Below, in pieces: positions 1 to 54,880 of a stretch of DNA of 64,000 bases. The position numbers and the translations under genes are program-made. This DNA is from Escherichia coli (GTDB taxonomy: Bacteria > Pseudomonadota > Gammaproteobacteria > Enterobacterales > Enterobacteriaceae). The stretch lies in NCBI RefSeq assembly GCF_050320075.1, contig NZ_CP190022.1, one strand, 5' to 3'. Positions within the stretch are counted from its first letter, which is position 1, and every line of letters begins with the position of its first letter. The notes under the pieces were generated by a model. It ran no database searches. It saw only the letters and a program-made list of their open reading frames with translations, and was not told the DNA's origin.

Positions 1-873
1 GTGGCGGCCCTGAACCAGACCTCATTTACTGAAAGCACATACCGTCAGGTAAAGAACCCGAATCCGGTATTCACACCCCGTGAAGGTGCCGGGACGCTGA
101 AGTTCTGCGAAAAACTGATGGAAAAGGCCGTGGGCTTCACCTCCCGTTTTGATTTTGCCGCGCATGTGGCGTATGCCCGTTCGCGCGGCCTGCGCCGGCG
201 TATGCCGCCGGTGCTGCGCCGCCGGGCGATTGATGCGCTGCTGCAGGGGCTGTGTTTCCACTATGACCCGCTGGCCAACCGCGTGCAGTGCTCCATCACC
301 ACGCTGGCCATTGAGTGCGGACTGGCGACGGAGTCTGAGGCCGGGAAACTCTCCATCACCCGTGCCACCCGTGCCCTGAAGTTCCTGGCTGAGCTGGGGC
401 TGATAACCTACCAGACGGAATACGACCCGACAATTGGCTGTAATATCCCGACCGACATCACGTTCACGCCGGCACTGTTTGCCTCACTCGATATCTCAGA
501 AGAGGCAGTGGCTTCCGCACGCCGCAGCCGCGTGGAATGGGAAAACAGGCTGCGCAAAAAGCAGGGGCTGGATGCGCTGGGTATGGATGAACTGATAGCG
601 AAAGCCTGGCGTTTTGTGCGCGAGCGTTTCCGCAGTTATCAGGCAGAGCTTAAGTCCCACGGCATGAAACGTGCCCGTGCGCGCCGCGATGCAGGCAGGA
701 CCCGTCAGGACATTGTCACCCTGGTGAAACGGCAGCTGACACGTGAAATCGCGGAAGGGCGTTTCCGGGGAAGCCTGGAGGCCGTGAAGCGCGAAATCGA
801 CCGTCGCGTGAAGGAACGCATGATAATGTCGCGGAACAACAACTACACACGGCTGGCCACAGCCTCACCCTGA
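1..873 (+). CDS. repA: Replication initiator RepA (IncFII-family RepA1/RepZ type), 5'-partial at window edge
   Basis: ORF runs from window start to TGA at 871-873; translation ([33 protein letters not shown]...[13 protein letters not shown]) matches the IncFII RepA family as I remember it; true start lies upstream of the window. Confidence 0.9.
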
Positions 874-949
874 GTTTGACCTCATCTGAATAATCCGGCC
901 TTCGCCGGAGGCTTCCGCACGTCTGAAGCCCGGTGACGCACAAAAAAGC

Positions 950-1300
950 AGCACAGCACACAAAAAACAGCCTCATTATCTGCCTTCCGGCTCGCCTTGC
1001 TCCCCCTGTTTTTCACGCAAAACAGGTATCACAGACGGGGAATTCTGTTTATCCACATTTAACTGCAAGGGACTTCTCCGTAAGGTTACAACCGTTCATG
1101 CTATAAAGCGCCAGCCGCAGGCGTTACAGGGTGCAATGTTTCTTTTAAACCCCAGTAATGTATTTCCTTTAAACTACTTAATTACTTCCATTTAAAAAAA
1201 AGACCTATTCAGTGCCTGTCCTGTGGACAGACAAATATGCACCTCCCACGCTAACGCGCGGGCCCCGAACCTCACCGTTCTGGAACCACAAAAAAAAGAC
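950..1300. other. Putative vegetative origin (oriR) downstream of repA
   Basis: Non-coding stretch after repA with a consensus DnaA box TTATCCACA at 1049-1057 followed by an AT-rich segment (about 1140-1200); position matches IncFII-type ori; boundaries approximate. Confidence 0.45.
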
Positions 1301-1776
1301 ATCAGGAATAAAAACACCACACAAACGCAGCACCGTGCCCACCCCTCATAACTGAAAAGCGAGGCCGCCCCCGCCCGAAGGGCGGGAACAACATCGCTTT
1401 TAATTATGAATGTTGTAACTAAACATCTTCATCGCTGTTAGTCTTCTGGCTGGAAGTCCTCAGTACACGCTCGTAAGCGGCCCTCACGGCCCGCTAACGC
1501 GGAGATACGCCCCGACTTCGGGTAAACCCTCGTCAGGACCACTCCGACCGCGCACAGAAGCTCTCTCATGGCTGAAAGCGGGTATGGTCTGGCAGGGCTG
1601 GGGATGGGTAAGGTGAAATCTATCAATCCGTACCGGCTGACGCCGGGCTTCGGCGGTTTTACTCCGTATATCATATGAAACAACGGAGTGCCGCCTTCCA
1701 TGCCGCTGACGCGGCATTAAAAAGATGCTAAAATTGCAACATTTTCTATATAAATTCAATTAATTACCTAAGCAAG

Positions 1777-2262
1777 GTGAGACTTTTGGAAGAAATGGGC
1801 GCGGAACCCCTTTATCTGACAAATATAATTGAAGCAATAAGTAGGCTAATTATCGTCGTTAACAACAAAGTTATTTTCTCTTTAGATTTCAACATAACGA
1901 TAAAATTCAAAATAGCGAGAGCCACCACCCCCCACTCAAAAAAATTATCTGTTATCAGTTCCACATTAAATCCCTTCTATAATCAAATAAACTTCACAAT
2001 CACCGCACATCAGATTAGCGCCCCATATAACGATTACGTAAAAATATTTATCATTCCAACAGCCAGCATAATGGGGTTCCAAGCCGGAAACCTAGATTTT
2101 TCCGCGACCAGTAACGGCGTGGGTTGTCACATAAAGGGCTGCGTTTGGGAAACGTACAATATTGTACGGTTGCGCTATTGCGGTAGGGTATACTCTATTG
2201 CGATAGGCAATCCTGTTCAAAAAATAGGCTTGCCGTACAATAATTATCTATATCCAAACTGA
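1777..2262 (+). CDS. Hypothetical protein (AT-rich, Ile/Asn-rich; GTG start in track, ATG at 1795)
   Basis: 161-codon ORF in an AT-rich block with no competing ORF on the other strand; no recognisable family; weak RBS. Confidence 0.3.
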   Translation: MRLLEEMGAEPLYLTNIIEAISRLIIVVNNKVIFSLDFNITIKFKIARATTPHSKKLSVISSTLNPFYNQINFTITAHQISAPYNDYVKIFIIPTASIMGFQAGNLDFSATSNGVGCHIKGCVWETYNIVRLRYCGRVYSIAIGNPVQKIGLPYNNYLYPN

Positions 2263-2272
2263 CCCCTTTATA

Positions 2273-2569
2273 TCAATTTCCTCCCCCCTGGATGAGCGTG
2301 ACGATTACTGACGGACCCTTGACGCTCCAGCAAATTCCCCTGTTCCACATAGGTTTCCAGATATGACCGGTTATTTTCACATTCGGTGTACGAGTTACAG
2401 ATGCAAATAATACAGGTGCATTATCAATATCATCAGGGATGAAATGGTAAGATCGTGGAAAATGTTTATTCATAGCCCGGATGATGGCTGTCTGTGCATC
2501 CTTTGTTCGGGCGCGGTGTGTCCATTCACGCCAGCTATTCATCTCAGAAATAATAACAGTAATCATCAA
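2273..2569 (-). CDS. Hypothetical protein, 98 aa; second gene of a two-gene minus-strand operon
   Basis: ORF with GAGG about 7 nt upstream of the ATG at 2569; starts 26 bp after the stop of the upstream ORF (2596); no family recognised. Confidence 0.5.
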   Translation of the reverse strand: MMITVIISEMNSWREWTHRARTKDAQTAIIRAMNKHFPRSYHFIPDDIDNAPVLFASVTRTPNVKITGHIWKPMWNRGICWSVKGPSVIVTLIQGGGN

Positions 2570-2595
2570 AACCTCGTGCCGTTACCGGGGTCAGT

Positions 2596-3210
2596 CTATC
2601 GATGGTTGATTGCGGCGAGCACATCCTCTGTCTCTTTCATCCTGGCGTTATAACGCTGCGTGTGTTTTTCAAGTTTTGCCTGCGCATGCAGCGCTTCTTC
2701 TTCCGTTACAGTTCCATGAACTTTGCCATCCAGACCATAACGCGGCGTACCTGCGACTGATATACGCTGCAGATATTTGTAACCGCCAGTAATCATTCTT
2801 ACAGCACAATTCCATTCTTTTACAGTTAGTCCACACTCAGGACTGGCCGAAATAAAAGCCATGACATCCTTTGAGATGCCTATTTTAAATGCATGATATC
2901 CCCCCTCTTCAGCCCGTAACTGAGGGAATGTTTTTTTAACACAGTCCAGACTGTGTCGGATAAACTCATGATTCCATCTATTGTTCTTCTTTTTTTTCTT
3001 CTTCTTACGTCCTGTTTTTTTCTGTTGTTCCGGGGAACCGGCCACTGTGGCTGGTATTTCAGGAGGTAATGAGTCGGTTTTAAATTCCATTACTGGCGCT
3101 GGTTTTATATCATCAGGAACAGCCTGTACGGCATCATCCTGGTGAAAAAGAATTCGTCTTTTTTTCTTAATAATAACAACAGGTGACGGTTTCTTTGTGA
3201 CACTGCCCAT
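2596..3210 (-). CDS. Hypothetical protein with an internal poly-lysine tract (about 204 aa from ATG at 3210; track ORF extends to GTG at 3246)
   Basis: ORF 2596-3246 in track; ATG at 3210 preferred because GAGGTG sits 6-7 nt upstream; product has a K-rich run encoded by a poly-purine tract and a C-terminal globular part I cannot place. Confidence 0.5.
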   Translation of the reverse strand: MGSVTKKPSPVVIIKKKRRILFHQDDAVQAVPDDIKPAPVMEFKTDSLPPEIPATVAGSPEQQKKTGRKKKKKKKNNRWNHEFIRHSLDCVKKTFPQLRAEEGGYHAFKIGISKDVMAFISASPECGLTVKEWNCAVRMITGGYKYLQRISVAGTPRYGLDGKVHGTVTEEEALHAQAKLEKHTQRYNARMKETEDVLAAINHR

Positions 3211-3309
3211 ATACACACCTCTGCGTATCGTTAATCTGTAATTCACGACATACAGATAGTATATATCTAAGTCAGCAAAGTCACCAACAGAATAATGATG
3301 ATATTTATT

Positions 3310-4020
3310 TCATGACTGTTCACGAATTATCACTCTGGATTCCTTCCTGGTGACATAAGTACAGTTATCAGGTACATCTTCCATAATAAAAGACATGGCT
3401 CCAATTTTTACATTACTGCCTATTTTTACGTTAAGCCCGATAATACACGTATGGGCACCTACATCGACATTATCACCAATAACGATATAATTCTCTCTGC
3501 TGTCAGATTCCTTTTCGCCAATGGTCGTATTCTGCCGTATAATCACATTCTCACCGATCTTTACATTTCCGTGAATGACGACACCTGAATGGTGGGGCAG
3601 CACGAGGCCTTTACCAATCTGCGCCCCCAAACCAATATCACATCCATACTTTGCCATAAGCGCATTTTTTATCTTGATCGCACATTTTCGTTGTTTTTTA
3701 TTCCCCGATATATACATTTCATTAGCCAGACGCCACCACAGAAGAAAACCTCTCTGCCTCTGCATACCGTTCCTGATAAGCCGGTGAAAAACAATCTTAT
3801 CCCGCATGATAACTTCTGCTTTCCAGTATTCCAGAAGATGACGTTTTTTTCCTGATAATAAAAATGTGCCAATATGGAAATAAGAAATAGGATTTTTTAT
3901 CAGCATACGCAAATTTTCAGATAACAATGAATACAGATGTATTTTATATACACAGATAAAACCGCGCAACAGACATAAATATGACAGTAGCCATGAAAAA
4001 GCAGAGTGTCCTTGACCCAC
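3310..4020 (-). CDS. Hexapeptide-repeat acyl/acetyltransferase (serine O-acetyltransferase-like left-handed beta-helix); start uncertain (internal ATG at 3906 would give about 198 aa)
   Basis: C-terminal half is a classic hexapeptide repeat run (GCDIGLGAQIGKGLVLPHHSGVVIHGNVKIGENVIIRQNTTIG...IGDNVDVGAHTCIIGLNVKIGSNVKIG); track ORF start at 4020 abuts the miniature transposable element. Confidence 0.6.
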   Translation of the reverse strand: MGQGHSAFSWLLSYLCLLRGFICVYKIHLYSLLSENLRMLIKNPISYFHIGTFLLSGKKRHLLEYWKAEVIMRDKIVFHRLIRNGMQRQRGFLLWWRLANEMYISGNKKQRKCAIKIKNALMAKYGCDIGLGAQIGKGLVLPHHSGVVIHGNVKIGENVIIRQNTTIGEKESDSRENYIVIGDNVDVGAHTCIIGLNVKIGSNVKIGAMSFIMEDVPDNCTYVTRKESRVIIREQS

Positions 4021-4026
4021 GATATT

Positions 4027-4312
4027 GGGGTCCGCTTGGAATTCGGAAATTTTCCCACGCTAAGAGAATTGAGTTGAACGAGTGGTTACATCCAGGCCAG
4101 CTAACTCACTGAACGTAAAGGCTGTACGAAATGTTCTGACCGTCCGATAACCGTTTGGCTTACTTCCGTACATTCCCTTGCGTGGATGTACAGAATTGTA
4201 CGATTTCGGACACCAAAACCGCTGTTGTCCCGCCATTCTGGCGATTCCTGAAAGTTATTTGACTAAAAAACAGTCTTAACGTGGTTTATTTTCCGAATTC
4301 CAAGCGGACCCC
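4027..4312. mobile_element. Tn3-family-derived miniature inverted-repeat element (TIME-like), 286 bp, no transposase
   Basis: 38-bp terminal inverted repeats beginning GGGG and ending ACGCTAAG / ACGTTAAG (4027-4064 and 4275-4312, outer 23 bp identical), the hallmark of Tn3-family ends; interior too small to encode a protein; no 5-bp target duplication visible. Confidence 0.6.
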
Positions 4313-4675
4313 TGTACACGCCCCGATACTGAACTGGTCAACACTATGCTGGATAGCTCTGTCGAAACGTTAAATGCTGGCGAACGACCGGTGATACACA
4401 GTGACAGAGGTGGGCATTATCGCTGGCCAGGCTGGCTGGAAAGAGTGAATGCAGCAGGTCTTATTCGCTCAATGTCCCGTAAAGGATGTTCACCTGATAA
4501 TGCCGCATGCGAAGGCTTTTTCGGCAGACTGAAAACGGAAATGTATTATGGGCGTAAATGGTCGGGCATCACGCCAGAAAAGTTCATGCAGCAAGTGGAT
4601 GCTTACATCAGATGGTATAACGAGCGGCGTATAAAATTCTCGCTGGGTGCCGTCAGCCCCAAAATGTACCGCTAA
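4313..4675 (+). pseudogene. IS3-family transposase (OrfB) C-terminal fragment, 5'-truncated at the miniature element
   Basis: In-frame translation from 4313 (CTRPDTELVNTMLDSSVETLNAGERPVIHSDRGGHY...SMSRKGCSPDNAACEGFFGRLKTEMYYGRKW...YIRWYNERRIKFSLG) carries the DDE-domain C-terminal motifs of IS3/IS150-group transposases; the N-terminal two thirds are absent. Confidence 0.7.
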
Positions 4676-5139
4676 CAATGCGGGCTGGAATGATAAAGCA
4701 GTCCAGGAAATCGTCCGCATCCCCAAAACGGCCAATAATCTTGGCGTTGACACCACCGCCAGATCAGTGGCAGAAGTGCCGTCTGCGGGCAGACCTGCGG
4801 CCGGGACCAGCGGCAGTACGACGACTTCTGCCGCACGCTGTTCTGCCCGGAGGCGGTCCTGTTCTGCCAGCAGCAGAGGCTGTGCCACGGCCCGGCCGGC
4901 GTCCGTCAGCTCCACTGCCTGCTGCAGGTTCAGTTTTTTTCTGAATTTTAACTGTATTTGTCCTTTATTGTTCTTGTTTGTTCCCTGGTGTGCTATTTGA
5001 GTCGGTTTTTGTCTTCATTTTTCTTTATTTTTCTGTTTGTGGACGATATCAGGTCTTTACTGATGCGTGTTTTTAGGTGATAATCTTTTTCGGCGCCATA
5101 TTTTTCTAAAAAAATCCATTTTATTCTGTGAGGTTCTGG

Positions 5140-6120
5140 ATGCGTATCTTTGTAGATGACGGTTCTACCAACATCAAACTGGCCTGGGTTGAAGACGGTG
5201 CAGTGAAAACGTTAATTAGTCCGAATAGTTTTAAACCGGAATGGTCTATGACGCTGCAGGGACTGACTGATGCCACTATACCCGCTTCCGCAAACTATGA
5301 GATTGATGGAGAGAAATACAGCTTTGATCAATTGAGTCCGGATGCAGTGCGCACCACAGAAACGCGTTATCAGTACAGCGACGTTAATGTGGTTGCTATT
5401 CATCATGCGTTGATGCAGTCAGGTATTGCTCCGCAACCTGTTGATATTGTTGTGACTTTACCTTTAGGTGAGTATCTGGATGAGAACGATCAGCCAAATC
5501 TGGCTAATATCGAACGTAAGAAAAATAATGTCAGACGAGCTGTAACAGTTCAGGGGCGTGAAAACTTTACCATTCGTAAAGTCAGTGTCTTGCCTGAGTC
5601 CGTGCCTGCCGGTTTTGACGTGCTGAAAGATCTGAATGATCTGGAGTCGCTGTTGATCGTTGATATCGGTGGAACGACCCTTGATATTGCACATGTCCGC
5701 AGCAAAATGTCCGGTTTCACAAAAACTTATTGTGACCCCAAGACAGGCGTTTCCATCATTACTGAAGCAGTTAAGCATGCGATGGATGTGAATGTGAGTA
5801 CACGAACCAGTTCTTATTTTGCAGATCGTCTAATCCAGGGCCGGGATGACAATGAATTCCTGACTCGTTATATCCCGAATGCAGAACAGCGTGAGCAGAT
5901 CCTGACAGTATTATGTGACCGGGAAAAAAAACTGCAGCATCGTGTGGCGGATTCAGTAGGACGCTTTGCTGGTTTTACTCATGTTATGGTTGTTGGCGGT
6001 GGTGCCAGCCTTGTGGCTGGGGCAGTAAAAAAAGCGACAGGAGTGGGTGATAACCGTTTCTTTGTCAGTGACAATCCTCAGTTCGATCTGGTGTTGGGAA
6101 TGATGGCAATGAAGGGATGA
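5140..6120 (+). CDS. parM: Actin-like partition ATPase ParM/StbA
   Basis: Translation MRIFVDDGSTNIKL...DIGGTTLDI...VMVVGGGA matches ParM/StbA actin-fold motifs; GAGG RBS 8 nt upstream of ATG 5140 (track ORF begins at GTG 5128). Confidence 0.9.
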   Translation: MRIFVDDGSTNIKLAWVEDGAVKTLISPNSFKPEWSMTLQGLTDATIPASANYEIDGEKYSFDQLSPDAVRTTETRYQYSDVNVVAIHHALMQSGIAPQPVDIVVTLPLGEYLDENDQPNLANIERKKNNVRRAVTVQGRENFTIRKVSVLPESVPAGFDVLKDLNDLESLLIVDIGGTTLDIAHVRSKMSGFTKTYCDPKTGVSIITEAVKHAMDVNVSTRTSSYFADRLIQGRDDNEFLTRYIPNAEQREQILTVLCDREKKLQHRVADSVGRFAGFTHVMVVGGGASLVAGAVKKATGVGDNRFFVSDNPQFDLVLGMMAMKG

Positions 6121-6545
6121 GTATGGCTGATAATCGTAAGTGCTCTTTTTATATTTATCCGGAACGAAATGCAGCTGATCGGGTGGCTGACAGGTTTCTT
6201 GAAAAATTGCCTCAGAAAGAACGTGGTCGGGCAATGCGGGCCATGATGTTGTGTGGTGCTGCATTGATGAAACAGGATGAACGATTGCCGTTCCTGATAG
6301 CTGAATTCCTGACAGACAGCACGTCTATGCAGGATATTCAACGAATTATCAGTAGTACGCTACCACAACAGGAAAATGGTGAAGTTGTTCGTTTGCTGGA
6401 GGCATTTCTGCAGTCTGCCGGTAATAATGCAAAAACGATCCTGCCTGCGGTTGATTCTGCTTCGCAAGAAATATCTGCTCCAGTCGATCAGAATCTCCTG
6501 GAAACAAGAAACAACATTAAGAACTTGTTTCCGGATGATGAATAA
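6117..6545 (+). CDS. parR: Partition adaptor ParR/StbB (ribbon-helix-helix centromere-binding protein)
   Basis: ATG overlaps parM stop (ATGA at 6117-6120); product resembles ParR/StbB and sits in the expected position downstream of parM. Confidence 0.8.
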   Translation: MSMADNRKCSFYIYPERNAADRVADRFLEKLPQKERGRAMRAMMLCGAALMKQDERLPFLIAEFLTDSTSMQDIQRIISSTLPQQENGEVVRLLEAFLQSAGNNAKTILPAVDSASQEISAPVDQNLLETRNNIKNLFPDDE

Positions 6546-6560
6546 GAACTGAACTCTGTT

Positions 6561-6590
6561 AAAGGACGCTGTTGCGTCCTTTTTTCTTTT
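6561..6590 (+). terminator. Rho-independent terminator of the parMR operon
   Basis: GGACGC-TGTT-GCGTCC hairpin followed by a T-run immediately after the parR stop. Confidence 0.6.
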
Positions 6591-6944
6591 CCGACAAAGG
6601 ATGTCGCCGGGCTCCTCTTTTTACTGCGCCGGCTGACGCGGCGCGGCAGAAACGCTGCCTGTGGTCAGTGTCCCGCGTCCGGCGGGCACGGGACGGGCGC
6701 TTTTACCGCTCCCGGCTGGCGTCGGTGACAGTGTACGCCAGCCAGTCGCCCTTTTCTGATGAACGCCCTTCAAGCCGCTTTCGCGGCATAACCTTGCCGT
6801 CAAAAAGACGACGGCTGCGGTATTCCACGGTCGGCCTGACCCGTTACCGGACGCGGTGAACAGCCCACAGGCAGCGGGGAACGGGCGCTACAGGGGCGCC
6901 CTCCCGGTGCTCTCTGCTGAAGCAGAAGTGAGAGGAAAATTCCC

Positions 6945-7250
6945 ATGCCAAACTGGTGCTCGAATCGTATGTATTTTTCTGGTGAACCGGCACAGATCGC
7001 TGAGATTAAACGACTGGCCAGCGGCGCAGTCACACCGTTTTATCGCCGCGCCACAAATGAAGGTATTCAGCTGTTTCTGGCCGGAAGTGCCGGACTTCTG
7101 CAGACCACTGAAGATGTGCGGTTTGAACCATGTCCCGGACTGACGCCTGCCGGAAACGCGGGGTGCAGCGCCTGCGGCGCTGCCGGCCCGGCTTTCCGGT
7201 CAGAAGGTAGTGTATGGCTGTATGCCAGGAACAGGTGTGATATTCCGTGA
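6945..7250 (+). CDS. Hypothetical leading-region protein (about 100 aa), possibly 3'-truncated by the Frpo-like repeat
   Basis: AGAGGAAA RBS 8 nt upstream of ATG 6945; ORF runs to within about 40 bp of repeat copy 1 (7288). Confidence 0.35.
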   Translation: MPNWCSNRMYFSGEPAQIAEIKRLASGAVTPFYRRATNEGIQLFLAGSAGLLQTTEDVRFEPCPGLTPAGNAGCSACGAAGPAFRSEGSVWLYARNRCDIP

Positions 7251-7287
7251 CACTGTCACCGTTTCTGGCTGTTTTTTGTTGCGCCCA

Positions 7288-7790
7288 CTTCGGCTCCCGG
7301 CTGCCTGGCGGCATCCGGTCGTCAGGCCCGACTACGACAGGCAGCTGCTGGCGCACCCGCCAGTCTCCGCCGAACCCGCTGGCGCGGTTTCGGGCTGTCG
7401 CTACGGTCCGATGCGTGAAAACCCGGGCTTGCAGCGACCGTTCCGGTCGCGCCGCCCCTGTCGCGCCGTGACCTGCGCTCCCTGCACACCTGACGGTGTG
7501 TGAGGAAACTGCGCCTGATGGCGCAGCAGTCTTCCCTCCTGCCGCCACCTCTGCGGCCTGTTTCCCGCTGTGGACTTTCCGGGGGGCAGACGTAACCCCC
7601 TCCCGTTCCATCTGTCCAGGGTGAGATGCACCGGCCACAAAATTTTTAGCCATGAACCCGGCTAAAAATTTTGCGTCCGCCCCCGGACAGCTGTCCCGTG
7701 AGGCGGTAAACGGGCCCCCATCGGAAAGGTCCACTGCGGGGAGAAACCCCTGTGAAGTGGACGGCAGGAGGAGCTTTCGCTCCTCTGAAG
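7288..7790 (+). repeat. Frpo/ssi-like single-strand promoter repeat, copy 1 (upstream of ssb)
   Basis: About 500 bp GC-rich non-coding block shared near-identically with 13641-14140 and (3' half) 16717-17045; contains long imperfect palindromes; ends about 60 bp before the ssb RBS. Confidence 0.7.
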
Positions 7791-7854
7791 GGGCACATGA
7801 ACGTCCCGTCGCCGGTATCCGGTTTATCTCACATCTTTCAGTCAGGAGGTTCTT

Positions 7855-8382
7855 ATGAGTGCACGTGGTATCAACAAGGTCATCCTCGTCGGGCGTCTGG
7901 GCAATGATCCGGAAGTCCGTTACATCCCCAACGGGGGCGCAGTGGCAAACCTGCAGGTGGCCACGTCAGAAAGCTGGCGCGACAAACAGACGGGGGAGAT
8001 GCGGGAGCAGACGGAATGGCACCGCGTGGTGCTGTTCGGCAAGCTCGCGGAAGTGGCAGGTGAATATCTGCGCAAGGGCGCGCAGGTCTACATCGAGGGG
8101 CAACTCCGTACCCGTAGCTGGGAAGATAACGGTATCACCCGTTACGTCACTGAAATTCTTGTTAAGACCACGGGCACCATGCAGATGCTGGGGAGTGCAC
8201 CACAGCAGAACGCTCAGGCGCAACCGAAGCCTCAGCAGAATGGGCAGCCACAGAGTGCTGACGCGACGAAAAAAGGTGGCGCGAAAACGAAAGGCCGTGG
8301 ACGTAAGGCCGCGCAGCCCGAGTCTCAGCCGCAACCGCCGGAGGGGGAGGATTACGGGTTTTCAGACGATATCCCGTTCTGA
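7855..8382 (+). CDS. ssb: Plasmid single-stranded DNA-binding protein
   Basis: OB-fold SSB N-terminus ([24 protein letters not shown]), Gly/Gln/Pro-rich linker and acidic C-terminal tail DDIPF; AGGAGG RBS. Confidence 0.95.
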
Positions 8383-8400
8383 CTGGCCTGACTGTGATAA

Positions 8401-8673
<273 letters not shown>

Positions 8674-8736
8674 GAGAGGTGCCGGACGGGAACGCGTCCG
8701 GCAGACATACAACCATCCCGGTCAAAGGAGAAATAT

Positions 8737-10695
8737 ATGTCAGTTACAGAGTCTAAGACAAAAACGGAGCGTAAATCCAGCCGTAAACCTGCAAAAACGC
8801 AGGAAACTGCACTGTCTGCCCTGCTGGCGCAGACGGAGGAAGTGAGCGTGCCGCTGGATTCACTGATTAAATCACCGCTGAATGTGCGCACGGTGCCGTA
8901 TTCTGCGGAGTCCGTCAGTGAACTGGCTGATTCCATTAAGGGAGTCGGCCTGCTGCAGAATCTGGTTGTTCATGCCCTGCCAGGTGACCGTTACGGTGTC
9001 GCCGCAGGTGGTCGCCGACTGGCAGCACTCAACATGCTGGCAGAGCGTGACATCATTCAGGCTGACTGGCCTGTCCGCGTGAAAATTATTCCGCAGGAGC
9101 TGGCGACGGCTGCATCGATGACCGAGAACGGTCATCGTCGGGATATGCACCCTGCCGAACAGATTGCCGGATTCCGCGCAATGGCGCAGGAAGGCAAAAC
9201 ACCTGCGCAAATCGGTGATTTGCTGGGTTATTCGCCTCGCCACGTTCAGCGAATGCTGAAACTGGCAGACCTTGCGCCTGTCATTCTCGATGCGCTGGCA
9301 GAAGACCGCATCACCACCGAACACTGTCAGGCGCTGGCGCTGGAGAACGACACCGCGCGTCAGGTGCAGGTGTTTGAAGCCGCCTGCCAGTCAGGATGGG
9401 GCGGTAAACCGGATGTGCGGGTTATCCGCAACCTGATTACCGAAAGTGAAGTGGCGGTGGCGGGGAACAGTAAATTCCGCTTCGTGGGGGCTGATGCCTT
9501 CTCGCCAGACGAACTGCGCACCGATTTGTTCAGCGATGACGGGGACGGTTATGTCGACCGCGTGGCGCTCGATGCCGCCCTGCTGGAAAAACTCCAGGCT
9601 GTCGCTGAACACCTTCGGGAAGCCGAAGGCTGGGAATGGTGCACCGGACGTATGGAGCCTGTCGGTGAGTGCCGTGAGGATGCCGGAACATACCGCAGCC
9701 TGCCGGAGCCGGAAGCGGTGCTGACGGAGGCGGAAGAAGAACGCCTGAACGAACTGATGGCACGTTACGACGCGCCGGAAAATCAGTGTGAGGAATCCGA
9801 CCTGCTGGAAGCAGAAATGAAGCTGATGCGCTGCATGGCGAAGGTCAGGGCGTGGACGCCGGAGATGCGTGCCGGAAGTGGCGTGGTGGTGTCCTGGCGT
9901 TATGGAAACGTATGTGTCCAGCGTGGTGTGCAGTTGCGCAGTGAGGATGACGTGGCTGACGACGCTGACCGCACGGAACAGGTGCAGGAGAAAGCGTCAG
10001 TGGAGGAAATCAGTCTGCCACTGCTGACGAAAATGTCTTCCGAACGCACGCTGGCAGTCCAGGCGGCACTGATGCAGCAACCGGACAAATCCCTGACACT
10101 GCTGGCATGGACGCTCTGCCTGAATGTGTTTGGCAGCGGAGCGTACAGTAAACCAGCACAAATCAGCCTGGAATGTAAACATTATTCGCTGACCAGCGAT
10201 GCGCCGTCAGGGAAGGAAGGTGCCGCATTCATGGCGCTGATTGCAGAAAAAGCCCGTCTTGCGGCCCTGTTACCGGAGGGATGGTCACGGGACATGACGA
10301 CATTCCTTTCACTCAGTCAGGAGGTGCTGTTATCCCTGCTCAGTTTCTGCACCGCGTGCAGCATCCACGGCGTTCAGACCCGCGAGTGTGGTCACACGTC
10401 ACGCAGCCCGCTGGACACGCTGGAGAGCGCCATCGGTTTTCACATGCGCGACTGGTGGCAGCCGACAAAAGCAAACTTCTTCGGACACCTGAAAAAGCCG
10501 CAGATTATCGCAGCCCTGAATGAGGCAGGATTGTCCGGTGCCGCACGGGACGCGGAGAAGATGAAGAAAGGCGATGCGGCTGAACATGCAGAGTTCCATA
10601 TGAAAGACAACCGCTGGGTGCCTGGCTGGATGTGTGCACCACGTCCACAGACGGATACCACTGAACGCACTGATAACCTGGCTGATGCCGCCTGA
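8737..10695 (+). CDS. ParB-like nuclease-domain protein of the leading region (652 aa)
   Basis: N-terminal ParB/Srx-type domain (VPLDSLIKSPLNVRTV...LLQNLVVHALPGDRYGVAAGGRRLAAL) with a helix-turn-helix segment; AAAGGAGA RBS; conserved position between ssb and psiB. Confidence 0.8.
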   Translation: MSVTESKTKTERKSSRKPAKTQETALSALLAQTEEVSVPLDSLIKSPLNVRTVPYSAESVSELADSIKGVGLLQNLVVHALPGDRYGVAAGGRRLAALNMLAERDIIQADWPVRVKIIPQELATAASMTENGHRRDMHPAEQIAGFRAMAQEGKTPAQIGDLLGYSPRHVQRMLKLADLAPVILDALAEDRITTEHCQALALENDTARQVQVFEAACQSGWGGKPDVRVIRNLITESEVAVAGNSKFRFVGADAFSPDELRTDLFSDDGDGYVDRVALDAALLEKLQAVAEHLREAEGWEWCTGRMEPVGECREDAGTYRSLPEPEAVLTEAEEERLNELMARYDAPENQCEESDLLEAEMKLMRCMAKVRAWTPEMRAGSGVVVSWRYGNVCVQRGVQLRSEDDVADDADRTEQVQEKASVEEISLPLLTKMSSERTLAVQAALMQQPDKSLTLLAWTLCLNVFGSGAYSKPAQISLECKHYSLTSDAPSGKEGAAFMALIAEKARLAALLPEGWSRDMTTFLSLSQEVLLSLLSFCTACSIHGVQTRECGHTSRSPLDTLESAIGFHMRDWWQPTKANFFGHLKKPQIIAALNEAGLSGAARDAEKMKKGDAAEHAEFHMKDNRWVPGWMCAPRPQTDTTERTDNLADAA

Positions 10696-12493: not shown

Positions 12494-12957
12494 ACCAGTG
12501 GAGGTATGCTTGAGGGGCAGGGACATGCCGGTCATGATCGTTTCGTTCCAGGGGTGGTCTGGAGATCATGCGGCGTGTCCTCTGCTCTCGCCGGAATAAG
12601 GACGTCGCCGGCGGCTCCGCTTTTACCCGGCCATGCGGGGCATGGCCTTGTGGGTTTTCAGGTATGAAGCCATCGTGTCGTGTGCGGGCTGTGCCGTGCC
12701 TCCATCGTAGCCGGGCTTCTGTGGGCGGGATGCAAGGTAAGATGAACCGCTGCGGTCACCCGGTCCCTCCTTCCCGTCTGCCGTGATTTTCCGGTCGTTC
12801 ACCCGCTCAGATTTCGCGGTCTCACCCTCCAACTCCCGTCAGCCGTGCGCGTCGGGCTGCGGCTTTCCTTGCGCCCTTGCATCCCTGCAGGCCCGGCAAA
12901 GATGGAGGCACGGCACCGCCCGGTGTCGCAGAACATGTGACTATGGAGGATTCGGGA

Positions 12958-13458
12958 ATGTCTGTTGTTGCACCTGCTGTATACGTTGGAACCTGGCACA
13001 AATATAACTGCGGAAGCATCGCCGGCCGCTGGTTTGACCTGACCACGTTTGATGATGAACGCGATTTTTTCGCCGCCTGCCGTGCCCTTCACCAGGATGA
13101 AACCGATCCGGAACTGATGTTTCAGGATTATGAGGGATTCCCGGGGAATATGGCCTCTGAATGTCATATCAACTGGGCCTGGGTTGAAGGCTTCCGCCGG
13201 GCACGGGATGAAGGCTGCGAAGAGGCTTATCGTCTCTGGGTGGATGATACCGGTGAGACGGATTTTGACAGCTTCCGCGATGCCTGGTGGGGCGAGGCTG
13301 ACAGTGAGGAGGCTTTTGCGGTTGAGTTCGTCAGTGATACCGGCCTGCTGGCTGACGTGCCGGAGACGGTGGCGCTCTATTTTGACTATGAGGCGTATGC
13401 GCGGGATTTATTCCTGGACTCCTTCACCTTTATTGACGGTCATGTGTTCCGTCGGTGA
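12958..13458 (+). CDS. ardA: Antirestriction protein ArdA (DNA mimic inhibiting type I restriction-modification)
   Basis: Translation MSVVAPAVYVGTWHKYNCGSIAGRWFDLTTFDDERDFFAACRALHQDE...DSFTFIDGHVFRR matches ArdA; very acidic; GGAGG RBS; track ORF extends upstream to 12877. Confidence 0.9.
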   Translation: MSVVAPAVYVGTWHKYNCGSIAGRWFDLTTFDDERDFFAACRALHQDETDPELMFQDYEGFPGNMASECHINWAWVEGFRRARDEGCEEAYRLWVDDTGETDFDSFRDAWWGEADSEEAFAVEFVSDTGLLADVPETVALYFDYEAYARDLFLDSFTFIDGHVFRR

Positions 13459-13640
13459 TTTACTCCCCCGCTCCGGCGGGGGTATGGCCTGCCGGGCCGC
13501 CGGAAAACCCTGGCAGGCTTACGCCTGCCTGAAATACAGGAGGGCCGCGCCTGCGGCGCTGCCCTTCCTGCCCGTCATGGTGTGAGGCATTTTTCTGTTT
13601 TGTCGTTTCTGTTGTTCTGATGCCCGGAGGCGGGGACACC

Positions 13641-14140
13641 CTTCGGCTCCCGGCTGCCTGGCGGCATCCGGTCGTCGGCCCGACTCCGACAGGCAGCTGC
13701 TGGCGCACCCGCCAGTCTCCGCCGAACCCGCTGGCGCGGTTTCGGGCTGCCGCTACGGTCCGATGTCTGAAAAACCAGGCCTGCAGCGACCGTTCCGGTC
13801 GCGCCGCCCCTGTCGCGCCGGAAACGGCGCTCCCTGCACACCTGACGGTGTGTAAGGCCACTGCGCCTGATGGCGCAGTTGTCTGCCCTTCCGCCGCCAC
13901 CCCTGCGGCCTGTTTCCCGCTGTGGACTTTCCGGGGGCTGAAGCGGCCACAACACGTCTCAGCCGTCCAGGGGAAGATGTACCAGCCACAAAACTTTTTG
14001 CCGCAGGCGTCAAAAACTTTTGCGTCTGCCCCCGGACAACTGCCCCGTGCCGTGGCAGTCGCTGCCCCATCGGAAAGGTCCACTGCGGGGAGAAACCCCG
14101 AAGAAGTGGACGGCAGAAGGGGCTTTCGCCCCTCCGGGGA
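13641..14140 (+). repeat. Frpo/ssi-like single-strand promoter repeat, copy 2 (upstream of the 14188 ORF)
   Basis: Near-identical to copy 1 over about 500 bp; ends about 50 bp before ATG 14188. Confidence 0.7.
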
Positions 14141-16611: not shown

Positions 16612-16716
16612 TTTTTTTGATTGTGGGTGTCGTGCTGTTTTCTCTGTTTTCACCTGTGCGGGAGTGGTGTGCCAGTGACCACCACATGCCATTGTTGTGC
16701 CGTCGTTTTTCTTCAG

Positions 16717-17045
16717 TCGCGCCGGATGCGGCGCTCCCTGCACACCTGACGGTGTGTAAGGCCACTGCGCCTGATGGCGCAGCTGTCTCTGCCTGTCTGC
16801 CGCCGCACTGCGGCCCGTTTTCCGCAGACGGACTTTCCGGGGGTACATACACGACCACATCCCGTTTCAGTCGTCCAGGGGAGAGATGTACCAGCCACAA
16901 AACTTTTTGCCGCAGGCGTCAAAAACTTTTGCGTCTGCCCCCGGACAACTGCCCCGTGACGTGGTGAGCGTCCCCCGTCGGAAAGGTCCACTGCGGGGAA
17001 ATCCCCGAAGACCCGGACGGCAGAAGGAGCTTCGCTCCTCCGGGA
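16717..17045 (+). repeat. Frpo/ssi-like single-strand promoter repeat, copy 3 (5'-truncated; upstream of the 17089 ORF)
   Basis: Matches the 3' 330 bp of copies 1 and 2; ends about 45 bp before the 17089 start. Confidence 0.7.
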
Positions 17046-18937: not shown

Positions 18938-21658
18938 ATGAATGCCATTATTCCGCACAAAAGACGTGACGGCAGGTCTTCCTTTGAAGACCTGATTGCG
19001 TACACGTCTGTGCGGGATGATGTGCAGGAAAATGAGCTCACAGAAGACAGCGAAATCAAGAGTGATGTCCCTCACCGCAACCGTTTCAGACGGCTTGTTG
19101 ATTATGCAACACGCCTGCGTAACGAAAAATTTGTCTCCCTGATTGATGTGATGAAAGACGGCAGTCAGTGGGTAAATTTCTATGGCGTAACCTGTTTCCA
19201 TAACTGCAATTCACTGGAAACAGCTGCTGAAGAGATGCAGTACAAGGCGGACAAAGCTGTTTTTTCCCGTAATGATACAGACCCCGTTTTCCACTACATT
19301 CTTTCCTGGCCTGCGCATGAAAGCCCGCGTCCTGAGCAGCTTTTTGACTGTGTGCGTCACACACTGAAATCTCTTGAACTCTCAAAACATCAGTACGTGG
19401 CTGCCGTTCATACGGACACGGATAATCTGCATGTGCATGTTGCCGTGAATCGTGTACATCCTGAAACTGGTTATATTAACTGGCTTTCCTGGAGCCAGGA
19501 AAAACTCAGTCGTGCATGCCGTGAACTTGAACTTAAGCACGGATTTGCGCCGGATAATGGCTGCTTTGTGCATGCACCCGGCAACCGTATTGTGCGCAAA
19601 ACAGCGCTGGTACGTGAGCGCCGTAATGCCTGGCGACGCGGGAAAAAGCAGACGTTCAGGGAATATATTGCGCAGATGTCGATTGCCGGGCTGCGTGAAG
19701 AGCCCGCACAGGACTGGTTATCTTTGCATAAACGGCTGGCCAGTGATGGTCTGTATATCACGATGCAGGAAGGGGAACTGGTGGTGAAGGATGGCTGGGA
19801 CAGAGCGCGGGAAGGTGTTGCACTCAGTTCGTTCGGACCGTCATGGACAGCTGAAAAACTGGGGCGGAAACTGGGGGAATATCAGCCTGTACCGACAGAT
19901 ATTTTCAGTCAGGTGGGGACACCCGGTCGTTATGATCCGGAAGCCATAAACGTGGATATCCGGCCGGAAAAAGTGGCAGAAACGGAGAGTCTGAAACAGT
20001 ACGCCTGTCGTCACTTTGCTGAACGCTTACCGGAAATGGCGCGAAATGGTGAACTGAAAAGTTGCCTGGCTGTACACCGTACTCTGGCAGAGGCGGGATT
20101 ATGGATGGGGATTCAGCACGGGCATCTGGTACTGCATGATGGATTTGATAAACAACAGACACCAGTACGTGCAGACAGTGTGTGGCCGTTAATGACGCTG
20201 GATTATATGCAGGATCTGGATGGTGGATGGCACTCTGTACCGAAGGATATTTTTACTCAGGTTATACCCGAAGAACGATTCCGGGGACACAGTATTGGCA
20301 CTCAGGCTGTCAGCGATTACGAATGGTATCGCATGAGGATGGGCACTGGTCCACAGGGTGCCATAAAGCGTGAACTGTTTTCCGATAAGGAAAGTCTGTG
20401 GGGATACGCTCTTATTCAGTGCAGGAGCCAGATTGAAGAGATGATAGCTGGCGGGGATTTCAGCTGGCAGGCATGTCATGAGATGTTTGCGCGTAAAGGG
20501 CTTATGCTGCAGAAACAGCATCATGGTCTCGTGATTGTGGATGCGTTTAATCATGAACTGACACCGGTGAAGGCCAGCAGTATCCACCCGGATTTGACGT
20601 TATCCCGGGCCGAGCCTCAGGCCGGGCCATTTGAAATTGCGGCTGCAGATATTTTCGAACGGGTGAAGCCTGAATGTCGCTACAATCCGGAACTTGCTGC
20701 CAGTGATGAAGTGGAGCCCGGCTTCCGGCGCGATCCTGAGCTGCGTCGTGAGCGCCGTGAAGCCCGTGCAGCTGCGCGGGAAGATTTGCGTGCGCGTTAT
20801 CTTGCATGGAAGGAACACTGGCGTAAACCCGATTTACGTTACGGCGAACGGTTGCGGGAAATTCATGCTGCCTGCCGTCGTCGCAAGGCTCATATCCGCG
20901 TGCAGTTCCGGGATCCACAATTGCGTAAACTGCATTACCATATTGCAGAAGTGCAACGTATGCAGGCGCTGATCAGACTGAAGGAAAATGTCAGGGAAGA
21001 GCGACTGGCGCTGATGGCGGAGGGTAAGTGGTATCCGTTGTCCTACCGGCAGTGGGTGGAACAACAGGCGGCGCAAGGCGACAGAGCTGCAGTGTCACAG
21101 CTCCGAGGCTGGGATTATCGCGATCGTCGCTCGCGTAATAAGGATAAAAGACGCACAACTAATGCTGATCGTTGTGTCGTTCTCTGCGAACCCGGAGGAA
21201 CGCCACTTTTTAATAATGTTGCAAAACTTGAAGCTCGTCTTCAGAAAAATGGAAGTGTTCATTTCAGGGATACGCGGACAGGAAAAAATGTCTGTACGGA
21301 TTACGGAGATCGGGTTGTGTTCTACCATCACACGGACCGAAATGAACTGGCAGAGAAGCTTGATTTAATTGCGCCAGTTCTGTTCAGCCGCAACGGAAAG
21401 CTTGGTTTTGAGCCGGAAGGTTCATACCAGCAGTTTAATGATGTGTTTGCAGAAATGGTGGCCTGGCACAATGCAGCGGGAATAACCGGAAACGGACACT
21501 TCACCATTACTCGTCCGGACGTGGATTTGCACCGTCAACGCAGTGAGCAGTATTACCGGGAATATATCAGACAGCAGACCCGTTTATCGGAGAGCCATGA
21601 TGATAATTATACGTTACGGCAGGAGAAAACATGGGAGCCACCATCACCTGGAATGTAA
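18938..21658 (+). CDS. nikB: Relaxase NikB (MOBP family)
   Basis: 906-aa product with the MOBP metal-binding motif HTDTDNLHVHVAVNRVH near the N-terminus; directly downstream of nikA. Confidence 0.9.
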   Translation: MNAIIPHKRRDGRSSFEDLIAYTSVRDDVQENELTEDSEIKSDVPHRNRFRRLVDYATRLRNEKFVSLIDVMKDGSQWVNFYGVTCFHNCNSLETAAEEMQYKADKAVFSRNDTDPVFHYILSWPAHESPRPEQLFDCVRHTLKSLELSKHQYVAAVHTDTDNLHVHVAVNRVHPETGYINWLSWSQEKLSRACRELELKHGFAPDNGCFVHAPGNRIVRKTALVRERRNAWRRGKKQTFREYIAQMSIAGLREEPAQDWLSLHKRLASDGLYITMQEGELVVKDGWDRAREGVALSSFGPSWTAEKLGRKLGEYQPVPTDIFSQVGTPGRYDPEAINVDIRPEKVAETESLKQYACRHFAERLPEMARNGELKSCLAVHRTLAEAGLWMGIQHGHLVLHDGFDKQQTPVRADSVWPLMTLDYMQDLDGGWHSVPKDIFTQVIPEERFRGHSIGTQAVSDYEWYRMRMGTGPQGAIKRELFSDKESLWGYALIQCRSQIEEMIAGGDFSWQACHEMFARKGLMLQKQHHGLVIVDAFNHELTPVKASSIHPDLTLSRAEPQAGPFEIAAADIFERVKPECRYNPELAASDEVEPGFRRDPELRRERREARAAAREDLRARYLAWKEHWRKPDLRYGERLREIHAACRRRKAHIRVQFRDPQLRKLHYHIAEVQRMQALIRLKENVREERLALMAEGKWYPLSYRQWVEQQAAQGDRAAVSQLRGWDYRDRRSRNKDKRRTTNADRCVVLCEPGGTPLFNNVAKLEARLQKNGSVHFRDTRTGKNVCTDYGDRVVFYHHTDRNELAEKLDLIAPVLFSRNGKLGFEPEGSYQQFNDVFAEMVAWHNAAGITGNGHFTITRPDVDLHRQRSEQYYREYIRQQTRLSESHDDNYTLRQEKTWEPPSPGM

Positions 21659-54073: not shown

Positions 54074-54522
54074 TTTTTCTCCGGCGTCATAAAAGACAGA
54101 TGTAAACGCCCGGCTGACTGCGAGAGTGTTGCCCGCCAGGCAGTCTGGGCTTCAGTGAGACGAAGGACATCAGCAAAGGTCATGTCGCGGACGTGCAGTG
54201 AGACGGGTAAGGGGAGACGGACGCCGCTGTAGCTGAACTGCTGGCCGCGCAGACGGGCCAGTTCGTTGAGCAATTCCAGGGCATCGCCTTCCCAGTCAAA
54301 GGAAACACGGTCGCTGTGAGCCTTCAGACTGCCGCCGGACTGACGCTCCGGAAGGGCTGCAGAGTAAATTCCCTGCCCCCATAGCTGATACTGCGCATGC
54401 CGGGCGACGGCGACATCAGAGGCAGCACCATACTTTCTGGTCGGAGCTGTATTATCCGGGGGGAGATGGCAGCCGTTCAGGCAGAGTACGGCGAGACATC
54501 CCGCAGGTATCATACGGTTCAT
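54070..54522 (-). CDS. traH: Lipoprotein TraH (DotD-like)
   Basis: Lipoprotein signal (LAVLCLNGC), 150 aa, overlapping stop/start with the downstream gene. Confidence 0.6.
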   Translation of the reverse strand: MNRMIPAGCLAVLCLNGCHLPPDNTAPTRKYGAASDVAVARHAQYQLWGQGIYSAALPERQSGGSLKAHSDRVSFDWEGDALELLNELARLRGQQFSYSGVRLPLPVSLHVRDMTFADVLRLTEAQTAWRATLSQSAGRLHLSFMTPEKK

Positions 54523-54880
54523 GGTGTATTTTTCCTGAGCAGTGAAAGAAGAAAGCGTTGTGGGGAGGATTTACTGGTTCGTGTTTTTGCTGAATGGCTG
54601 GAACACCTCAGAGGGTGACAGTGCTACCCGGATACAAATATCGTTTGCTATCACGATATTACATTCGTTAGCTGTCGGATCCCGGAACGGTTCCACCATA
54701 AAGGCTTTGTTTTCGATATGCGTTTTATTTTTGTTAAACATGCATTTCCTCATGCGAAAATGATATGTCAGATAACAGCCAGATCAGAGGCAGCACTACA
54801 GGTCTGGCTGTGTCGTTTGATGGTCGGAAAACGCGAGGATGCAGGTCTGGATACCCCGGTCAGTACCGGGGCAGAGATGA

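Follow-up and report, generated by a model that had tools for sequence, protein, structure and literature searches.

In IncI1 plasmids, six leading-region operons are induced from single-stranded DNA (ssDNA) promoters at the start of conjugation, two of which are the methylase and KlcA units (PMC12672017). In that study a class 3 ssDNA promoter was placed on a hairpin 5' of M.EcoGIX in pESBL, with its transcription start site mapped by 5' RACE, and class 1 comprises the ssi1-3/Frpo elements (PMC12672017). For the class 1 Frpo/ssi promoters of IncI1 and IncF leading regions, the relevant passage of PMC11541004 cites Masai and Arai (1997).

A second described system is the DUF1281/Api92 protein family. 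Intact homologues have 308 amino acids (often annotated as 300 in RefSeq) and combine PF06924 (DUF1281) at residues 30-206 with PF18406 (DUF1281_C, ferredoxin-like) at 209-282, while PDB 2IJR (Api92 of Yersinia pseudotuberculosis) aligns from residue 3 to residue 274. In the AlphaFold model of the intact protein (pLDDT 92.8) the strand at 4-12 is the sole strand before residue 210, the chain being helical to about residue 200, and the other long strands lie at 210-295. A Foldseek comparison of this model with the PDB matched only 2IJR, a structural-genomics entry without function; PADLOC and NCBIfam gave no match for the parent protein, and a literature search on DUF1281 returned nothing relevant. 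Diverged full-length homologues (30-57% identity) have 301-319 residues, with conserved positions throughout and a C-terminal HYGG, and the conserved homologues overall have 300-320 amino acids. The gene is common in E. coli: matches to the intact gene comprise 3,970 records in 3,100 of 5,426 complete genomes, and at least 80% of the gene is present in 3,746 of these records (94%).

Here we analyse a 101-codon open reading frame (ORF) in a 64,000-nucleotide stretch of Escherichia coli DNA (assembly GCF_050320075.1, contig NZ_CP190022.1), hereafter the window. It covers the part of an IncI-complex (IncK/Z-like) conjugative plasmid that serves replication and partition, together with the leading region. 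We conclude that this ORF is very probably a non-functional gene remnant rather than a separate small gene. Judged from its sequence, it is chimeric, with codons 1-70 being a true DUF1281 N-terminus and codons 71-101 read-through.

The open reading frame and its setting

The ORF listing and the sequence place the ORF on the + strand at 6945-7250, with an ATG at 6945 and a TGA stop at 7248-7250. The features to which we refer are as follows.

1-873: RepA
5128-6120: ParM
6117-6545: StbB/ParR, with the gene end at 6545
6561-6582, + strand: terminator-like hairpin and T-run (9-bp stem, 4-nt loop, TTTCTTTTCC tail)
6583-6932 (350 bp): putative class-3-type ssDNA promoter hairpin, a copy of the DNA 5' of an M.EcoGIX-type methylase, with transcription probably toward the + strand
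6930-6936, + strand: Shine-Dalgarno GAGAGGA of the DUF1281 gene, from the sequence; intact homologues have GAGAGGA(A/G)AATTCCCATG upstream
6945-7154, + strand: codons 1-70 of a DUF1281/Api92-like gene, its genuine 5' part, by nucleotide, protein and Pfam homology
7140-7154: recombination joint, a 15-bp microhomology CTGACGCCTGCCGGA; homology on the left extends to 7154, and that on the right starts from 7140
7151-7200: GC-rich imperfect palindrome in the ORF tail, from the ssDNA fold, with core GCAGCGCC-TGC-GGCGCTGC
7155-7250, + strand: read-through tail (codons 71-101 and stop), which in relatives is non-coding DNA 5' of the ssb ssDNA promoter
7288-7785, + strand: class-1 Frpo/ssi-type ssDNA promoter repeat, copy 1, by repeat families and homology
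7855-8382, + strand: ssb, plasmid copy (Pfam SSB, E=2.3e-37)
Within 12877-13458: ardA

The hairpin at 6561-6582 stands directly 3' of stbB/parR and divides the parM-stbB operon from the downstream DNA, and ssb is the first intact gene 3' of the truncated gene (the stub). Past ssb the order is a DUF905 gene, a ParB-like gene, psiB and psiA, and beyond ardA come an Rpn/YhgA-like gene, a DUF4942 gene and then a 906-aa ORF (18938-21658), which is taken to be the putative NikB relaxase by its position and size relative to pESBL-EA11, together with the relaxase named under a match. An Rfam search of 5000-9000 gave no credible family.

Upstream of the ORF, GAGAGGAAAA occupies 6930-6939 and its GAGG (6932-6935) lies 9 nt 5' of the ATG. 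The initial annotation had credited the ORF with 101 codons, a good ribosome-binding site (RBS) and an end about 40 bp before repeat copy 1, all of which we confirm, the distance from the ORF end to the start of the Frpo/ssi-like repeat at 7288 being 38 bp; its title had the ORF run into that repeat, whereas the ORF stops short of it. Length alone says little here, as an ORF of 101 codons is unremarkable in the GC-rich DNA of the window, and the listing for 8 kb holds 76 ORFs of at least 40 amino acids, many of them overlapping. The 5' two-thirds of the ORF nevertheless stand above chance because of their homology, namely a Pfam DUF1281 match and 97.8% nucleotide identity.

The two parts of the reading frame

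In a BLAST search of 72,556 plasmids, the sequence up to 7154 matched thousands, in which it begins a gene annotated as "DUF1281 domain-containing protein". Positions 6945-7154 share 97.8-98.9% nucleotide identity with intact genes, and 6928-7154 share 97.8% with the 5' ends of annotated DUF1281 genes. A profile search of the ORF matched PF06924 (DUF1281) at 35.5 bits, against a gathering cut-off of 27.3 (E=9e-9), with ORF residues 30-72 covering only profile positions 1-43 of 177. Compared with the 308-aa homologues, the ORF protein is the same up to G70 save for Q59R and A68P and diverges completely afterwards, and its homology to all DUF1281 homologues stops at about residue 70-76. The plasmid proteins WP_001134370.1 (pESBL-EA11, 308 aa) and WP_001438601.1 (annotated with 300 aa) share with the stub the RBS, the start and the first 70 residues with two substitutions, and, like intact plasmid DUF1281 genes, the stub follows the partition genes, at the leading region's distal end.

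The N-terminal motif MPNWCSNR of the ORF follows the family pattern MPNWCxNR, in which M1 and N7 are invariant and N3, W4 and C5 nearly invariant among 18-20 diverse homologues and 2IJR. Conservation of MPNWCxNR throughout the family, together with the alignment of 2IJR from residue 3 on, shows that the ATG at 6945 is the native start. In RefSeq/PGAP records the DUF1281 start is usually set at Met9, giving 300 amino acids (window 6969 rather than 6945; in other loci, L002 6430, L003 9549 and L004 4426). Given the conserved N-terminus and the good RBS before Met1, the likely true product is the form with 308 amino acids that pESBL-EA11 has in its annotation.

The family positions L94, W138, P173, G182, G262, G269 and P296 and the C-terminal HYGG all lie past the breakpoint and are missing from the stub, which by alignment A2 lacks 14 of the 25 invariant and nearly invariant positions. 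It keeps 23% of the 308-aa protein. The DUF1281_C domain is gone, and the 101-aa ORF does not have the full DUF1281 plus DUF1281_C architecture of about 300-320 amino acids. When set against the model of the intact protein, the stub retains strand 1 and two or three helices of the two-domain fold and none of the other long strands; on this secondary structure, the 101-aa product would not be expected to fold or function. The ORF thus descends from the DUF1281/Api92 family as a fragment and is no functional member of it.

The remainder of the ORF has a different source. Positions 7155-7250 are 100% identical to pIFM3804 DNA upstream of ssb, in a match that starts at 4001 of that locus (L001), at least 55 bp downstream of a small hypothetical gene (L001 3755-3946), and codons 71-101 match nothing in any DUF1281 homologue compared. 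The tail peptide also ends four unrelated read-through ORFs of other plasmids (P0146, P0163, P0174 and P0207), which is why we regard the tail as a chance open frame in non-coding DNA. The palindrome at 7151-7200 lies about 90-120 bp 5' of Frpo copy 1, and a similar sequence (83%) at 13518-13563 precedes Frpo copy 2.

The joint and the missing interval

From 7140 onwards the sequence is non-coding DNA upstream of ssb in thousands of plasmids (BLAST, 72,556 plasmids), so that the left and right matches overlap by 15 bp. In relatives, CTGACGGCTGCCGGA lies within DUF1281 codons 66-70 (14/15 identical) and CTGACGCCTGCCGGA is the pre-ssb copy (15/15), and the microhomology at 7140-7154 encodes codons 66-70 of the ORF. 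The chance of a 14/15 match in one alignment register is, by our own arithmetic, about 46/4^15 = 4e-8. The two copies are 4,836 bp apart in p1106, 4,843 in pIFM3804, 4,842 in pESBL-EA11 and 7,238 in pA16EC0070-1. A distance of 4.8 kb is found in related plasmids of the IncI complex and in many of IncF type. The right-hand copy in relatives forms the loop and 3' arm of a small hairpin, CTGGCAGGC-TGAC-GCCTGCCGG. Homologous recombination between Frpo copies was considered and rejected, the long repeat starting at 7288, away from the joint; at the joint itself there is only the 15-mer, present once in the window by a 15-mer search, and a weakly similar 45-bp block (7140-7184 versus 13518-13563).

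The 221-bp junction probe found no record covering the junction among 72,556 plasmids or among 5,426 complete E. coli genomes. The junction was found in one sibling draft contig, JBRVYA010000064.1 (8,021 bp, GCA_053266775.1), which encodes the same chimera to the contig end and reads 98 bp through the joint. This contig is 99.71% identical to window 1-7238, with 21 differences, 20 of them in the repA region, and is identical over 5000-7238; its protein with the same tail has 98 amino acids and the NCBI name "DUF1281 domain-containing protein, partial". The junction is private to a small lineage. Its absence from the complete records of both large collections, and the dispersed hairpin and Frpo copies on either side that confuse assemblers, might suggest that two GC-rich repeat-bearing regions were mis-assembled and that the plasmid gene is really intact. 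We regard this as extremely improbable, as the joint is at a unique 15-mer and at none of the long repeats, and the independently assembled GCA_053266775.1, a distinct record by its 21 differences elsewhere, crosses it. That an independent draft contig carries the same chimera argues that the joint is not an assembly artefact.

The initial annotation had allowed for either a complete small gene or the 5' stump of a larger one, and had suggested aligning related leading regions for a longer homologue. Full-length 308-aa genes exist there, and the stump half of this reading stands, homology stopping at about residue 70-76 of 308. For the other half, a complete and functional early-expressed gene such as a stand-alone DUF1281 N-terminal module, one can cite the intact RBS and native start, the class-3-type ssDNA promoter copy directly upstream with no terminator before the ORF, the identical ORF in a second record, and the many short DUF1281 N-terminal proteins listed by a representative search. 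These short matches are, however, marked "partial" at source or, among the sequences fetched, are different chimeras, and a family of homologues of about 100 amino acids was rejected after word-indexed and exhaustive representative searches gave partials and chimeras. The diverged conserved homologues are all of about 300-320 amino acids, and the tail, common only to read-through ORFs of unrelated genes, runs over a palindrome in non-coding DNA in a product with those 14 conserved positions missing. The second record is a sibling plasmid, identical here, and lends no independent support for conservation. The initial annotation had held that homologues of the same size elsewhere would tell against a stump; the only one is the 98-aa partial, which is no independent small-protein family since its contig carries the very same junction. 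A complete small gene is therefore hardly credible. What is left here is the ordinary scar of a deletion in a gene of known family, and an identical 98-aa fragment already bears the DUF1281 name. The ORF is best labelled a DUF1281 pseudogene fragment rather than a new small protein; in itself it is of little importance.

How the gene came to be cut can be judged from relatives. The initial annotation had proposed that a repeat-ssb cassette was inserted and displaced the rest of the gene, and the ORF does break near the start of the Frpo repeat and ssb block. Yet the block is ancestral: in pESBL-EA11, pIFM3804, p1106, the FDAARGOS_1301 plasmid and pA16EC0070-1 an intact DUF1281 gene is already followed by it 4.8-7.2 kb further downstream, with its order and orientation relative to DUF1281 unchanged in every relative examined. 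Moreover, hairpin copies account for all additional matches of the 5' region in relatives, and 7140-7154 shows neither a target-site duplication nor the end of a mobile element, only the 15-bp microhomology. Insertion of a cassette, with the 3' part of the gene displaced elsewhere, is thus exceedingly unlikely.

We propose instead that the interval between the two copies was lost in one RecA-independent recombination event mediated by the microhomology, after which the fused reading frame would by chance have stayed open for 31 codons more, across the GC-rich palindrome. Window 1-7154 is collinear with the IncK2/Z plasmid pA16EC0070-1 at 98.7% identity (99-100% over 4900-7139), and this plasmid, with its intact DUF1281 gene, is the closest undeleted backbone. 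Over 7140-8900, on the right of the joint, identity is 99.8-100% to the IncK1 plasmid pIFM3804, as against 84-99% to pA16EC0070-1, so that the closest relative changes precisely at the joint, from pA16EC0070-1-like on the left to pIFM3804-like on the right. The F-plasmid allele shares two of the three substitutions present just left of the joint (7120, 7130 and 7133), indicating that the parental allele was itself mosaic. An IncFIA plasmid, too, matches the stretch 4928-7154 (parM-stbB-hairpin-truncated DUF1281), at 98.7% identity. Immediately left of the 4928 ancestry boundary, at 4346-4675, there is a fragment of an IS3-family transposase (rve_2/rve_3).

The deletion may have arisen by one of two routes. 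In the first, an earlier homologous exchange within the now-missing interval would have been followed by an intramolecular microhomology deletion; in the second, a pA16EC0070-1-like and a pIFM3804-like IncK plasmid would have been illegitimately joined at the microhomology. Both routes would fit the ancestry of the flanks, the leading region being mosaic everywhere, and both would leave the ORF in the same state.

The contents of the missing interval were read from the annotation of pESBL-EA11. They comprise DUF1281 codons 71-308, a hairpin-overlapping ORF, small hypothetical genes, two DUF1380 genes, a hypothetical gene of 256-258 amino acids, an M.EcoGIX-type DNA methylase (Pfam N6_N4_Mtase) and a 141-aa antirestriction protein (Pfam Antirestrict) of the KlcA-type operon. 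The interval absent at 7140-7154 corresponds to L003 9720-14577, L004 4597-9447 and L008 3667-8523. Among the leading-region genes, the plasmid has kept ssb, psiB, psiA and ardA. The result is a plasmid lineage without the M.EcoGIX-type methylase and KlcA-type operons, two of the six early leading-region operons described for IncI1, and this loss predicts weaker establishment in recipients whose restriction systems those genes counter.

Truncation of this gene is not peculiar to the window. In plasmid F (L009 5856-6781) a frameshift at about codon 163 leaves a 168-aa product identical to P0026. P0006 and P0122 are in-frame fusions of DUF1281 to the C-terminus of PsiB, P0132 runs out of frame into ssb, P0002 has an interruption near residue 82, and P0154 is a further truncated or chimeric DUF1281 protein among those listed. 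An internal deletion is seen in one truncated DUF1281 copy. These other truncations, that of plasmid F included, differ from the window's in breakpoints and partners and are independent losses. Repeated truncation of so widespread a gene, even in plasmid F, argues that DUF1281 can be dispensed with under many conditions, and the leading region seems prone to deletion.

The putative ssDNA promoters on either side of the stub

The hairpin at 6583-6932 is 95.1% identical to 54429-54774 (346 bp) of pESBL-EA11 (NC_018659.1), which ends 8 bp before the methylase start at 54782. When the transferred (-) strand of 6583-6932 is folded as ssDNA it forms a long stem-loop of -100 kcal/mol (z=-6.2), and 0 of 100 shuffled sequences were as stable. 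No sigma-70-like double-stranded promoter was found on the + strand in 6500-7900, and -35 and -10 elements sought by eye in the hairpin gave no convincing hexamers. A hairpin copy also lies directly 5' of DUF1281 in pA16EC0070-1 and in the IncF plasmid p103605_83, a placement that suggests early expression of DUF1281 as a leading gene in those lineages. Over the hairpin, RefSeq records carry a "hypothetical protein" of 95/96 amino acids (window ORF 6572-6859), which is probably spurious.

On the other side of the stub, Frpo copy 1 is composed of the repeat families D5 (7288-7328), D1 (7325-7585) and D3 (7659-7785). It is 86.5% identical to copy 2 (13641-14134) and 80.5% to copy 3 (16716-17040), and in pESBL-EA11 it matches the pre-ssb region at 98.6% and the second copy at 89.8%. 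Long ORFs cross the Frpo/ssi hairpin on both strands (7030-7734 on the - strand; 7210-7503 and 7247-7471 on the + strand), and some RefSeq records, such as that with L008 8468-8839, call such ORFs "hypothetical proteins"; most likely they are artefacts of structured GC-rich DNA.

Because its hairpin and RBS are intact, the stub is probably briefly transcribed and translated in new transconjugants. No terminator-like site was found on the + strand between the 6583-6932 hairpin and stub and the ssb class 1 promoter, and the stub transcript may run on into ssb. It is conceivable, though we consider it very unlikely, that the tandem ssDNA promoters and the 101-codon leader represent a selected rewiring that boosts or retimes ssb-psiB expression on entry, in a plasmid from which the methylase and KlcA operons have gone; the alternative is a neutral scar. 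In either case the arrangement differs from the described one: in pESBL-EA11 the class 3 and class 1 elements are 4 kb apart, each driving an operon of its own, whereas in the window the class-3-type and class 1 elements are only about 355 bp apart (6932 to 7288), with the stub alone between them.
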